Shown here: piece after piece, positions 6,384 to 63,877 of the stretch
Numbering within the stretch: the stretch's first letter is position 1
Layout: every line of letters begins with the position of its first letter
Assembly: GCA_976551045.1 (NCBI GenBank)
Contig: CDPCPM010000370.1
Span: 2,852,001 to 2,916,000 of the forward strand
DNA from: Glaucostegus cemiculus
Taxonomy: Eukaryota
Direction: 5' to 3'
DNA length: 64,000 bases
Notes under the pieces: generated by a model
What the model was told of the DNA's origin: nothing
Database searches by the model: none
The model's input: only the letters and a program-made list of their open reading frames with translations
Made by a program: the position numbers and the translations under genes

Positions 6384-6958
6384 NTCTCTTTCTGTGTCCC
6401 TCCAACACATATCAACCTTTCTTTTGTTATCTGTCTGCCTTCCTCTTTCTCTCTGCTCCTCAGCACCTGTTCCCACCCTCCTGTTTCTCGGTCCTTCATG
6501 CTCTCTGTCATTGCTAGTACAGTAACCTCCAATGCGACGTCTTCTCCATTTCTGGAAGTGCACTGCACCGTATCTCCAGTTTGCTATTCATTTCACTGTT
6601 ATATACACACGGAACTCTATAAAAATGATCAAAACCGATTTCCACCATCGTTGTCAGCTGCATATCGTGTTGTAGGCAACGGGGCAAAGGGGATATGGAG
6701 GTGTGCTGGACATACTTTGTGAGGTTCCTTCTACTAACCATAGGTGTGAGTTGAATTCAACAACAATTCCACAAGCTTGGACGAAATTATTTGCTGAGCC
6801 CATCATTTAAGTGCACCTTCCTTAATGCACTGAGTGATCCTCACTGTTCCCTGTGTGAACTTCTCGCTTATCTAGCGAAGGGCGCCATCTGGCGTGCACT
6901 CATTGTCACAACCACAGACGGTTTTTGTCCGGACCCGCCATCTGCCTGCGACAGTGTG

Positions 6959-27874: not shown

Positions 27875-28010
27875 TCGTTCCTGCAATAAAGGATAGAATG
27901 TATGAAGGGCCCGAGTTTGCATTGACCGTAAGGAAACACACAGGCTGGTTTGGCCGAAACTCACTGGATAGCACGGCCAATATCATCAGTAAGGAACAGA
28001 GGGAGCACAG
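27875..28010 (-). pseudogene. Leader-only V relic 1 (V exon deleted after ~6 nt; start codon ATG>CTG)
   Basis: B-type leader and intron (27881-27964) are present, but the acceptor is followed by LINE-derived flank (junction cacacaat|cgttcctgc). Confidence 0.88.
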
Positions 28011-30117
28011 GCTGACTGGCGTCGGGCTAGATCGAAAGGCAGATCCCTTTCAAGAAGTTCATTCCACTTGACCGATATTACACAATGAAGTCAGATCTGC
28101 GGCAATTTCCACTTTATCAAAGACTGGCGGCTGATTGGTGCCCTGGTAGGCTCAGTCACCTACCACCCTGCTGAAGGATTGGGTGAGAGATTACTGAACC
28201 TCCTGGGGTGCCAATCAAAATATGCTCTGGTTCAGCCTTTCGCTCTCTCTCTCTGGCTGTTCCTACTTCTATTTATCTTCCGTTCTCTCTCACGTTCTCC
28301 CTGTCTCACTTTCTTTCGCTCTCTTTGCACTCATCTCTGCCATCTCCCTTTCCCTCCAGTTTGTCCTCTCTCTGATTTCCTTGTTTCTCGCAGCCCTAAT
28401 CACTCTCTTCTGTTCTCTCCCTATTATTCCTCATCGCAACTTGCTGTCCTACATCTCACTCTACAATGTGCAAATTCTGTTGCATATTCCAATAGTGAAT
28501 ATAGATGATGACACCACTGAATCCTGTGTAATCCCCCAGTTATTCATCATCCATCTGGAAATCACCCATTTATTCCCTACTCATTGATTCCGTCAATGAT
28601 CCAATCTCCAAGCCGTATGAACAGAGAGCTATCAGAATTTGAATCTTCTGAAGGACCCTTCATTGTGACACTTCCTCGAACGCTTTAGAGGAACTACAAC
28701 CAAGTGATTATAATCAATTTCCAGCAACCTGTTCAACCGGGATATATCTTTGCCGACAAATAGTGCAAAAGGGAGCATTCATGTGTCTCTGAAATGTTTT
28801 GCAAAATTCTTATTTTACCGAACGATATGAGTTGATTTCAAGGAACTCCTCCGGCTTAGCTGCCTTTTATTACCTGGCGCCGCCCATTTAACTGAGCCGT
28901 GTAAACCTTACAGTTACATGTGTGCGATCCTTCTATTTACCGGGATGAGAGCGCACCGCCTTCCTCCTTGACCTGCCCCGGGCTTGCAATGAGCAGTCAT
29001 TGCAGATTACTTTAAAGCAGTTAATACCATTTGACCGAAGTCGGAGAATGAGATCAGTTCAACAGCACCCTTAACACCTTGTGTAAGACAGGGCGCGCTA
29101 CCCTGCAAAAGTATTGGCCGCAAACTCATAACTGTTCTATCACGGCACCAATCGGAATTTGCTCTTGCCTGAATATTTTCTGGCAGTTTTTCCTTCTCAT
29201 TTCATTCCGTTCTCCCTTTCGCTCTTTCTTCCTACATCAAACACCACCCTTTATTTCCTCCGTGTTTTTTGTCTCTACCTCTCTCTCTGTGTCGCTCTCT
29301 GCCCTCGGATCGTCATTCCCTGCTCCAATCCACCCCCTCTCTCTCTCTTTCAGCCTCTCTCTCTTCCTCTCCCTCTCTCTATGCTATATGTATGGCTCAT
29401 TCTTCTTCTATTTATATTCCGTTTTCTCTATGCAGTTCAGCTCCTCTGTTTTCCTGTCTTTCATATTTATCCCCTTCTCTCTTATCCCCTGATCTGCCTG
29501 TTTCACTTTCTTTCCCTTCCTTTCTGTAGAAGCTACCTCATACGCCTTCCTCTCTGTCCTCCTAACTTCTGCCTGTCCCATGTATCACTGTAACCTGCGC
29601 AAATTATATTACTTGTTGCATCGTGCCTTCAGCTAAATCATCAATATATGTTATGAGTAGTTGAGGCAACACCATTGAATTATGGTGCATCCCATGAGTT
29701 ATTCGTTCTCATTCCGAAGATCACCCATATATTTCCCACAATTATTATCTCTGCAGTATTCTTCAGTAGGAGACCTTATTAAATATTTATTTATCGAATG
29801 CTTTCTTGAAATATACAGACGCTGCATCTCCAGGTTCCCATTTATCCTGACATTTACATCCTTAAGGAACTGTGAGAGTGGCCAAAGTCCATTTCCAGCA
29901 TATTTCTCAACTGCAAAATGCTTTGCCCGATAGCAGCGGGAACTGGGGGTTCAAATAACCATTCTGAAGTTCCTGTTTGTACCTCTGGGTTCATGTTGAA
30001 TGCATAACAGCTCCGCAAGCTCAGGCGTATTTGGTAACCGAGTAACGCCCACTTGTGGACCACGTGACACTCACTGCGACGTGTGCACCCCACCCCTCGG
30101 CCGGTTGCTCGGTAATC

Positions 30118-30362
30118 GCGCCCTCTAGTGAGCGCTCGGTGCCAACTCCTCGGCCAGGATAAGACAGAACACATCGTATGTGCCTTCAGGCCCGATCAAA
30201 GGCCAGATTGCTTTCTTGTTCATGAAACGTGACCGATTTTGGGAAAACAATGTACAAATCAGAGGCACGCTTATCTTTGTATAAGGCTGTTAGCGTTGAT
30301 ATGTTAAATGATTCGCCGGTGCATTATGACTGAGCCTACAGGGGCAGCAATCAGAGTGCGCT
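30118..30362 (-). pseudogene. Empty V cassette (representative of ~28): CTCF motif, leader stub and promoter, no V
   Basis: The post-RSS flank gcgccctctagtgagcgctcggtgc is joined directly to a leader 5' remnant (MCSVLS..) and a promoter-homologous block. Confidence 0.8.
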
Positions 30363-31013
30363 CAGCGCGAATTTTTCTCTGACTGGTTCTCGGTTTCTTT
30401 ATTTTCCATTCTCTCTCTCTCTTTCTCCCTCTCCCGCCCTCTCTCTCTGTCTCCCTCCAAGAGCATCACCTTTCTCTCAATCTATTTTTCCATGTCTGCG
30501 TCTCCCGATCCCTCTGATCCTCATTGCCATCTCCCTCCCTTCTGTCTCTCAATTCTGCACGCTCTCTATCCTTGCTACGGCAGTAGCCTCCAATGCAACG
30601 TCTTATCGAAAGATTTCTCGATATGCAATAAACTGTGTCTCTTGTTTCCCGTTCATTTCACTTTGATATGCTCAAGGAATTCTCTAAGAAGGAATGGAAA
30701 AAATTTCCAACAACGTTGTCAGACGCATATCGTGGTGTATGCAACGGTGGAAATGGGATATGTAGGTGTGCCAGACATGCTCTGCAATGTTCCTACTTGT
30801 AGCTATCTGTATGAGTTGATTCAACAGCAATTCCTCAAGCTTGGAGAGAGTCTTTGCTGAGCCCAGCATTTAAATGTACTCTCTTTAATCCACTTCGTGA
30901 TTCCTGTGTCAGCTTTTCGCTTGCCTGGCATATGACGCCATCTACTGTGCGCGCATTGTCACACACGCATCGCCAGTTTTTGTCCGGACGCGCCATCGTG
31001 CTGCAACTCTGTG

Positions 31014-31445
31014 GGCTGCGTGGCACAGAGGTACACGGCCGAGTCCGACACCACAGTCCCGGAGATATACAAGTGACCTCTCTTGCTGTCTTTCTGCCAA
31101 TCAGCCGTAAATCTCTTTGAACACTCTGGGTGCGGTTCCATCTTTCCTGAGCTATACACCCTCAACAAATATTCTGGAGATTCCCCGTGGTGCTCACTGT
31201 ACCAAAAAATATATGCAGCGGACGCCGTGTAACTACAGTTCAGTATTATGCTCTGTCCTTCCTCAACCGTTAACTCCGGAGGGTCTTGGGTCACTGAGTC
31301 TTCACCACTCGTTCCTGCAATAAAAGATAAAATTCATGAAGAGCCCGAGCTTGCATTGAGCGTACGGGAAACACACAGGCTGGTTTGGCACAGACTCACC
31401 AGGCAGCACGGCCAATATCACTAGTAAGAAACAAAGGGAACACAT
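31014..31445 (-). CDS. TRAV: V segment V10 (subgroup C), intact. Leader 31400-31445, V exon 31014-31314
   Basis: Intact frame. RSS CACAGAG at 31007-31013, 23 nt, ACAAAAACT at 30975-30983. Confidence 0.9.
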
Positions 31446-32773
31446 GGTGTCTGGCTTCGGGCTCGATCGACAGGCAGATCACTTTCAAGAAGTTCATTCC
31501 ACTGGACCTATATATTAGAATGAGGTCAGAAGAGCGGCGCTTTTCACTTTGTCTCAGACGGAAGGCGTTGCCCTGCTGTAGGATTGGCTGGTCGACGACT
31601 GAAACTCCCGAAGCACCAATCAAAATGGGCTATAACTAAGAGTCTACGTCTCCGGCCGTTACCCCTTCTATTTATATGCCCTTCTCCTTCACTTTCTCTC
31701 TCTGCCTCTCTTTCTTTCGCTTTATTTCGCTCTCGTCTATCCCAATTACCTTTCTTTCCAGCAATACCCCGTCTCTCTCCCTCCTTCCTTCTTCTTCCTG
31801 CTCAAATCGCTCGCTCTGCACTTCTATCTTTTTTTTAGCTCTTAAAGCAACTATGTATCCCAAATATCACCCGACCATGCGTAAATGTAATGACATGTTG
31901 CATGATCCATTTAACTATATCATGAATATAGATTATAAATAATTAGGACAACATCAGTGAAGCTTCTTGCATCCACTAGTTACGCACCGTCATTCTGTAT
32001 ATCAACCACTTATTTCCTACCCATTCTTTCCGTTAGTGATCCAGTCTCCTAGAAATAGACGCTATCACAATTTGTATAAACTACTTCAGCAGTCTTCACT
32101 GAGACACCTTCTCGAACGCTTTAAGAATAATACAGACGCTGTGGCCCTTAATATCCCTTTATCCTCACTGTTACATCCTCAAGAAACTGCAGAATGTGAT
32201 CATGGTCATTTCTGGCAACCTGCTCATCCGGGATATATTTTTGCCGATAACCGGAGCGAAGGGGAACATTCAGCTGCCCCGAATATTCGTCGTGAAATTC
32301 TTATTTTTAAAATGGGTACGACTTGATTTCAAGGGCAACTCCTCAGGCTCAGGTGCCTTTTATTACCCAGCGTCGCCCGTTTAACTAAACCACGTGAACT
32401 CACTGCAACGTGTGGGCGATCCTTCTATTTACAAGGCTAAGAGCGCCCTCTGGTGAGCACTCATTGCAACCCCGGGGCGGGAACAGAGGGATCTCATGGT
32501 ATCTGTCTTCAGGACTGATCAAAAGGCAGATTACTTGCAAGAACTTGATACAACTTAACCGATGCTGCAGAATGATATCAGTTCAGCGGCACCCTTTACT
32601 TTGTGAAAGACTGGAGACGTTGGTCGGCTAGAGGATTGGTTAGAAACTCATACCTGAGTCAATCATTCCACCGCTCGGAACGTGGTCGAGTTGAATTTTT
32701 CTATGGCACTTTTTCCTGCTCATTTCATGCAGTTCTCTCTTTCGATCTCTCTCCCTCTACCAATCTCTGTCTG

Positions 32774-58239: not shown

Positions 58240-59055
58240 GGTGTCTGGCTTCAGAATAGATCGAAAGCCAGAGAGCTTTCAATAAGTCAATACATCTTCG
58301 CCGCTACTGGAGAATGAGATCACATCAGTGGCACCTTCCTCTTTGTGTAAGCGTGGGGGCGTTATCCTGCCATAGGACCGTCTGTTAAATCAGGACTCAC
58401 CCTATTGGTGCACCAGTAAAGTGGGGTCTTGTGCAATTCATCTCTCTGCATATTCAAATTCCCTTTATATTCCGGTCTCTCTCTCACACGCGAACATGCG
58501 CACATGACCCTTTCTCTCGCACTCTTTCCATCCGCCTCTCTCTTTCCTTGTTTCTCCCTTCCTGCCCCTACCTCTAGCTCCCCCTCTCTTTCTCCCTCTC
58601 TCTTCCCTTCAATATGTCTATTCTACCTCTTGAAGTAACCTCTATAGTGACCTCCTATCGAATGATTTTCATCTCTACAGTACTTGCATCTCTAGTTTTC
58701 CCGTCACCCTCACTGCAACGTGTTCAAGAAACTCTAACAAACTGGTGGAAGACGAATTAAAGCAACCTTGACAACGGCACGTGGTTTTGTAGGCAATAGT
58801 GGGGGAAGGACTTCGAGATGTCCCGGATATCAGTTGCAAAGTTCCCATTTGAGGTACGATTTGAAGACAAGGATAATTCCACATCTGCGACGGGTTTTGG
58901 TGATGAATGTCACTCTCTTAAATACACCGTGTGATCCGCATTGTTTGCTGTTTGAACCTTCAGGAGCCCAGGCGCAAAGCGCCCTCTAGTGAGCGTTCAT
59001 TGTCACACCCAGAGCAAGTTTTTGTCCGGACCCGCCATCTGCCTGCAACAGTGTG

Positions 59056-60360: not shown

Positions 60361-60560
60361 CTCTAGGCCTAATCCTAAATTTAAAAAACGATTCCACAAG
60401 CTTGGGCGACTTTGTGGTTGGGTGTCGCCCTCTGAAATGCAGCCCATGACCCTCACTCATGTGTCTGTTCCTCCTTTGTGGTTCCCCACTGAGCGCGCCC
60501 TCTTTGCAATATCCAGGGCGCGGTTTTTGTCTGCATCCGCCATCGCCCTGAAACAGTGTG

Positions 60561-63190: not shown

Positions 63191-63877
63191 GGTGACTGGT
63201 TTCAGCCTCGATAAAATATTTCAAAAATTTAACACCACTTCACCGATGTTGGAGAATGAGATCAGATCAGCGGTAGCTTCATTTTGTGTGAGACTGGGGG
63301 CGTTGCCCTGCTAAAGGATTGGTTGTTAAATGAAAACTGAGCACCAGTCAGAATGGGACTGGGTTCACTTTGTCTCTCTGTCTCTTCATATTCCCGACAC
63401 TTTCACACTCACACACTATCTCTCCCTCTCACACACACATCTCCCACTCACTCTCACAGGCACAGCTCTCTCTCGCACACTCTCGCCTCTGCTACATTGA
63501 CACACACACATTTCCCCATCACACACACACACACATCTCTCTCTTATGCACACATCTATCTCTTTCACACACATATTCCCGCTCCACACACACACATATT
63601 TCTCTCGCTTCTGTCCATCAACGTTCCCAACAGTGAAATGATGTTAGAGACAGAATGGAAAGGGGACATGAGGTGTCACAGAAAATGTGCACCTCCAGCA
63701 AGGAGTTGTATTCAGGAACTGTTCCTCAATCTCGGGCGAGTGCTTTATTTACTGAGTGCGCTCCTCTTATGTCGGAAGTGGATTGCGCGTGCGCTCCTGC
63801 AGGTTACCCGGCAAAAGGCGCCCTCTAGTGAAATGGGCGGTTTCTGTCTGCAACCGCCATCTCCCTGCCACAGCGTG

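Follow-up and report, generated by a model that had tools for sequence, protein, structure and literature searches.

The window, by which we mean the whole 64-kb stretch of DNA analyzed here (C370:2,852,001-2,916,000, in a genome of 2.85 Gb), holds TCR-alpha-like V genes arrayed in tandem along the minus strand. Its V genes possess a V-set exon, a split leader, and an RSS with a 23-bp spacer, and are closest to TRAV, as is characteristic of TCR alpha/delta V segments. The family extends from at least window position -1,800 to beyond 163,000, and occurs a second time 440 kb away. A protein search with one V exon gave no scored match among 9 candidates; in 17 sampled stretches no TCR J or C segments were found, and D was likewise not located. 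The same contig carries two IgH-like C1 exons, at 1,854,587 (L171) and 1,791,522 (L172), that is, at 1.85 and 1.79 Mb, which is in line with the linkage of IgH and TCR alpha/delta reported for elasmobranchs in PMC12227049. An intact V gene and the units below it comprise the following features.

31400..31445, minus strand: leader exon of an intact TCR-alpha-like V gene, with ATG at 31445 and GT donor at 31399
31014..31314, minus strand: V exon (Pfam V-set, E 1.7e-16; best PDB matches are TCR alpha chains, E 1.3e-20)
30975..31013, minus strand: RSS with 23-bp spacer
30935..30948, minus strand: RSS-proximal CTCF-like core (site A), with two mismatches from the consensus; distance to the heptamer start, 65 bp
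30564..30684, minus strand: short CR1 RT remnant after site A (columns 566-688 of the genomic CR1 model, E 1.5e-5)
30156..30458, minus strand: promoter, 5′ UTR, and leader start of a collapsed V gene, with ATG at 30174, meeting the post-nonamer flank at about 30155
30118..30131, minus strand: CTCF-like core (site B), one mismatch, paralogous to site A but lacking V and RSS, with flanks common to A sites
29887..30117, minus strand: middle segment, common to A and B units, not CR1
29571..29886, minus strand: CR1-type LINE RT remnant spanning the motifs CLTNL to roughly ADDT, frameshifted and with an internal deletion
28490..28692, minus strand: CR1 remnant of a further collapsed unit, its core lost (E 1.2e-7)

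Interspersed among CR1-less pseudogenes of the first family, at C370:2.76-2.85 Mb (L121-L129), is a second V family of mixed orientation whose RSS spacer differs; the CTCF-like motif is absent at 11/11 of its RSSs.

Using the CTCF consensus as printed in PMC6746451, 26 matches with at most one mismatch were found in the window, all on the V sense strand, where 0.5 would be expected by chance; over the 166-kb family region 60 of the 61 one-mismatch matches lie on that strand. Being paralogs, these copies do not provide independent evidence through their number or common strand. The left flank holds two minus-strand and no plus-strand matches at one mismatch, and eight and twelve, respectively, at two. 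The sites fall into two classes: site A, at 63-64 bp from the heptamer start and thus 24-25 bp past the nonamer of a V RSS, and site B, about 900 or 2,100 bp below an RSS.

A profile of the RSS only gave 85 signals, 40 of which have an open V exon and were called intact by this crude rule. The core is present with two mismatches or fewer in 36/40 intact V genes and 30/45 of the others (Fisher p 0.017, the copies not being independent), and in 32 of the 36 the spacing is 63-64 bp from the heptamer start. Among flanking windows, only 1/371 changes as little as the A cores of the window, and the outer A cores change less than all 237, these cores having been selected in part by motif score. Per column, intact V genes show 1.86 changes in the core, 1.22 in the nonamer, 1.57 in the heptamer, 4.0 in the gap, and 5.7 in the sequence downstream; the variability of the core is thus about that of the RSS and less than half that of the DNA on both sides. 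In 27 broken V genes the core is more conserved than the RSS (2.07 versus about 3.5 changes per column), and since it outlasts the RSS there, a working RSS alone does not account for its retention. A figure of 0.75 for an 8-column sub-core was picked after seeing the data and carries no weight. Site A combines a consensus match, a fixed distance from the nonamer, one orientation, and less conserved flanks, the properties by which an RSS-associated CTCF-binding element was defined.

Several variants were seen. The apparently intact V gene with its RSS at 60560 has lost most of the core through a short deletion (window about 60490-60521), and this damaged copy is a natural control for V usage. 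In the subgroup at 63831, 61426, and 56740, with further copies in L111-L120, the core lies 7 bp past the nonamer and 46 bp from the heptamer; all 11 copies with a core sit in broken V genes. RSS spacers of this V family themselves contain a two-mismatch CTCF-like string (window 59032-59045 and 6935-6948, minus strand). Observed/expected CpG is 0.98 in the surroundings of the B cores versus 0.63 in their CR1 part, and 0.72 at the A cores of the window versus a background of 0.67; as the A-core value is near background, no inference is drawn from these differences.

The B units are what is left of collapsed V genes. In 26/26 units tested the upstream 100-330 bp align, with 64-73% identity, to the promoter, 5′ UTR, and start of the leader of a V gene; for 30156..30458 the identity to the region upstream of the intact V 44217 is 65% (E 6.9e-31). 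This homology ends 10-44 bp before the core, mostly 22-29, at the same junction region in 26/26 units, which on an A unit maps about 477 bp above the core. The junction being about 24 bp before the B core, we conclude that a single deletion removed about 452 bp, reaching from the leader start through the nonamer, and that site B is, on these alignments, a paralog of the site A motif. The ATG that opens ORF 29854-30174 is the leftover leader ATG of the collapsed gene. B cores are hardly more conserved than their flanks, 188/666 windows changing as little, and this holds for the site at 30118-30131 as well, which is most likely a passenger copy of the host RSS-proximal CTCF-like motif. Collapsed units also occur in tandem pairs of two sub-lineages (for example 43280/42058, 33530/32456, 25584/24394, and 15645/14508), which suggests that the array has a higher-order repeat unit of about 9-10 kb.

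Further down each of these units lies the remnant of a LINE. It is a CR1-type RT fragment of 300-390 bp, shortened to 120-140 bp in most A units of the window, with RT-region homology to an APE-RT non-LTR element. Genomic copies for comparison were found with the best-preserved frame, and two further searches added younger and older subfamilies; 38 loci were examined, and the 26 that cover the region upstream of the RT served as the CR1 reference. The genomic copies L072, L074, and L131-L160 are probably of the CR1 clade. The relatives of reference L072 carry PF00078 and many also PF14529/PF03372; the top ones are mostly from birds, turtles, sharks, and rays, and the most identical of the 120 listed, at 85%, comes from a sawfish, which hints at a ray-like host. 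A profile of 80 cassette units, the best preserved among 127 sites, matches 26/26 genomic copies (best E 1.3e-26), so that the RT remnant of the original prediction is real. A model made only from genomic copies in turn matches 29883-29571 over columns 555-924 (E 3.5e-8). A protein profile built from 65 of the 120 relatives listed gives 26.7 bits for the remnant at 29571..29886, and exceeds 10 bits in 22/48 units versus 0/480 shuffles. The remnant is too frameshifted for Pfam to recognize an RT in single reading frames (0/12 non-V ORFs, 0/18 frames). The 3′ end of the element and its tail were not found: none of the 47 family matches passes column 942 of the 1813-column model. The top RVT_1 loci of the genome (L021-L050) were rejected as a source; they represent a different LINE family, without matches in the window. 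A separate, distantly related LINE RT fragment in L116 (window-relative 116239-116844) has 27% identity to CR1 protein (E 9.5e-18) and is not matched by the CR1 DNA model.

Not every cassette carries the fragment, as had been claimed, yet most do. With the family model it follows 47/53 CTCF-homologous sites of the window (20/25 V-linked and 27/28 deleted-gene sites), and with the independent genomic model 15/25 V-linked and 26/28 deleted-gene sites. Its position, strand, and 5′ edge are constant over about 165 kb, and it is also present 440 kb away. This supports a single CR1-type insertion preceding most duplications of the V family. The unit majority is only 67% identical to the genomic CR1 majority (251/374), versus 89-95% for 20/26 sampled copies, and the insertion is therefore older than those subfamilies; at this identity, the parent subfamily is absent from the sampled copies. 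That the members of a tandem gene array share a LINE fossil is nothing unusual, but the fossil is useful as a marker for ordering the duplications.

Between the core and the LINE lies a middle segment of 230-250 bp that travels with CR1 in most units. No copy outside contig C370 was found in DNA searches, which need close identity and skip common words, or in the fetched loci, and the segment has no Pfam or Rfam match. An inverted 5′ CR1 piece as its source gave no signal (z -0.3), and an RNA family or SINE head was rejected, with 0 Rfam matches in 28000-32000.

The LINE edge is at the CLTNL motif, 230-250 bp below the CTCF-like core. In unit coordinates the core occupies columns 39-52, and the alignments of the genomic copies begin at columns 282-301 (25/26) or 336 (one), so that the claim of colinear homology up to the CTCF motif is not confirmed. 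A longer CR1 model, in which the ALV and GNYR landmarks are at columns 304 and 412, gave 50 matches over 254 kb; 47 of these are in the family region, and all start at or beyond column 535 and end by column 942. In a global pair-HMM comparison the RT part yields a logLR of 35.9 (z 21, 0/200 shuffles as good), and the part from core to RT -5.0 (z 1.15, 24/200 shuffles as good; z -0.8 with B units only). A local test at the lower divergence setting found 142/300 shuffles as good for the upstream stretch and 67/300 for the core alone, compared with 0/300 for both 95-column RT stretches used as controls. A pre-RT protein profile scores above 10 bits in 0/48 units. Among B units the upstream stretch has accumulated 2.26 changes per column versus 2.06 for the RT part; being no more eroded than the RT part, it should have revealed real homology.

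The original prediction held that the LINE had reached the RSS and that mutations in its RT-coding DNA gave rise to the CTCF core (exaptation). The peptides on which it drew are present, each in a different copy: GNHRCPSL (15556-15533), TSLLEFLEHV (58746-58717), FEKAFKNVTHK (57536-57504), QNSMVLSQLL (15137-15108), and ALTRGRDYRATG (30135-30100). At the homologous place 9/28 B units read GNxRxxSL and 7/28 read ALT, and the overall spacing fits (256 versus 246 columns), although inside it is uneven, about 93 versus 108 and then about 160 versus 138. Three single-unit alignments overshoot to CR1 columns 480, 503, and 511, and local scores in narrow windows are slightly above the null mean (32-44/300 shuffles as good in three of four tests), none of this being significant. 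Against this, no test gave significant DNA or protein signal upstream of CLTNL, so GNHRCPSL and ALT do not stand as CR1 matches, and that stretch changes among units at the same rate as the RT. The suggested inspection of genomic CR1 copies found no CTCF consensus match with fewer than two mismatches anywhere in the 26, the best text of the ALV region being unlike the core. Nor is the motif confined to the element: to the left of the window, 11 V pseudogenes have a core-like site with neither middle segment nor CR1, perhaps through secondary loss. With the LINE alignment stopping short of the motif, the outcome that the prediction itself had named as refuting it, birth within RT sequence now appears very improbable; only an unsampled older LINE subfamily could revive it. 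No better placed is the idea that the middle segment, perhaps with the core, came from another, unrecognised mobile element arriving with the CR1 piece. The two do travel together in most units, and no source of the segment was found; however, it has neither copies outside contig C370 in the sequence searched nor a Pfam or Rfam match, and cores occur without it.

A reading that keeps the same history but regards the motif as a GC-rich RSS flank, kept by recent duplication, gene conversion, or another binding factor rather than as a working CTCF site, deserves somewhat more credit, but seems unlikely. The weak conservation of B cores, the loss of the core in the intact V gene 60560, and its absence from the RSSs of the second V family would agree with it; the match to the published consensus, the far lower variability of A cores than of the bases on both sides, and the more frequent retention in intact than in broken genes would not. 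We consider it probable instead that the CTCF-like motif, which lies outside the LINE, is host DNA tied to the RSS, and that the array arose as follows. An ancestral TCR-alpha-like V gene would have carried, about 24 bp past its RSS nonamer, a CTCF-type motif. A piece of a CR1-type LINE, starting where the RT domain starts, would have come to sit about 240 bp further down and then decayed. Tandem duplication would have multiplied the unit promoter-leader-V-RSS-CTCF-middle-CR1 about a hundred times, and one copy that had lost about 452 bp between leader start and nonamer end would have been amplified as a V-less passenger. Behind this history stand, as observations, the anatomy of the units, the LINE boundary, the A/B paralogy, the one deletion junction, and the A-core conservation. 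Its functional part is by analogy with the mouse proximal VH genes: CTCF would bind the A cores and stall cohesin loop extrusion beside the RSS so that RAG can use that V, the B cores and the LINE being mostly passengers.

The order of the first two events was considered using the pseudogenes on the left, six of which have the core at 61-63 bp and no middle or CR1 sequence. In a V tree of 96 of the 111 sites (those with enough V sequence) and 6 outgroup genes, the 11 left-hand pseudogenes fall into two clades, both with good support, while the base of the tree is a polytomy; a topology constrained to group all right-hand genes is not rejected (AU p 0.453). Absence of CR1 from V genes may be the ancestral state or the result of secondary loss; a core older than the LINE is compatible with these data.

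Compared with ORF2 of CR1-type LINEs, the remnant is homologous at both the DNA and the protein level between CLTNL and a point just past FADDT, collinear and on one strand, but it is an internal, frameshifted fossil with no upstream ORF2 and no 3′ end, and was multiplied by tandem duplication rather than by retrotransposition. In transposon-derived CTCF sites, such as those of rodent B2 SINEs, the motif is inside the element. As there, motif and retroelement have spread together; here the motif is about 240 bp outside the element and the spread was by segmental duplication. The RSS-linked motif matters more than the LINE fossil.

CTCF-assisted V selection has been studied in mammals; a literature search in which subscription journals were thinly covered found nothing on it in cartilaginous fish or teleosts. 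The mouse Tcra V region has many CTCF sites, mainly at promoters. The closer parallel is with the mouse proximal VH genes, for which PMC6746451 describes CTCF-bound, RSS-associated sites 17-19 bp after the nonamer in one orientation, and PMC6439775 a lower use of the adjacent V upon loss of the site. If A cores are bound, CTCF control of V(D)J recombination would be pushed back to the oldest jawed lineage. We give about even chances to the proposal that a TCR alpha/delta V family of sharks and rays uses working CTCF sites, fixed behind the RSSs in one direction, which would hold each V before RAG during loop extrusion. In that case the RSS-plus-CTCF device of mammalian Igh would go back to the root of jawed vertebrates, unless it evolved on two occasions, and the V-less copies, having CTCF sites but no RSS, would serve as an internal control. 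Like the mouse proximal VH genes, the ray genes have a consensus-type core at a fixed distance after the nonamer and in one orientation across the array, conserved above the gap between RSS and core and kept more by functional genes. The host locus differs, being TCR-alpha-like and of a cartilaginous fish rather than mammalian Igh, and the gap is 24-25 bp (7 bp in one broken subgroup) versus the mouse 17-19 bp, which is measured to a motif starting 2 bases earlier. In the mouse, CTCF binding and an effect on recombination have been demonstrated; in the ray the correspondence is one of sequence, a likeness that need not reflect homology.
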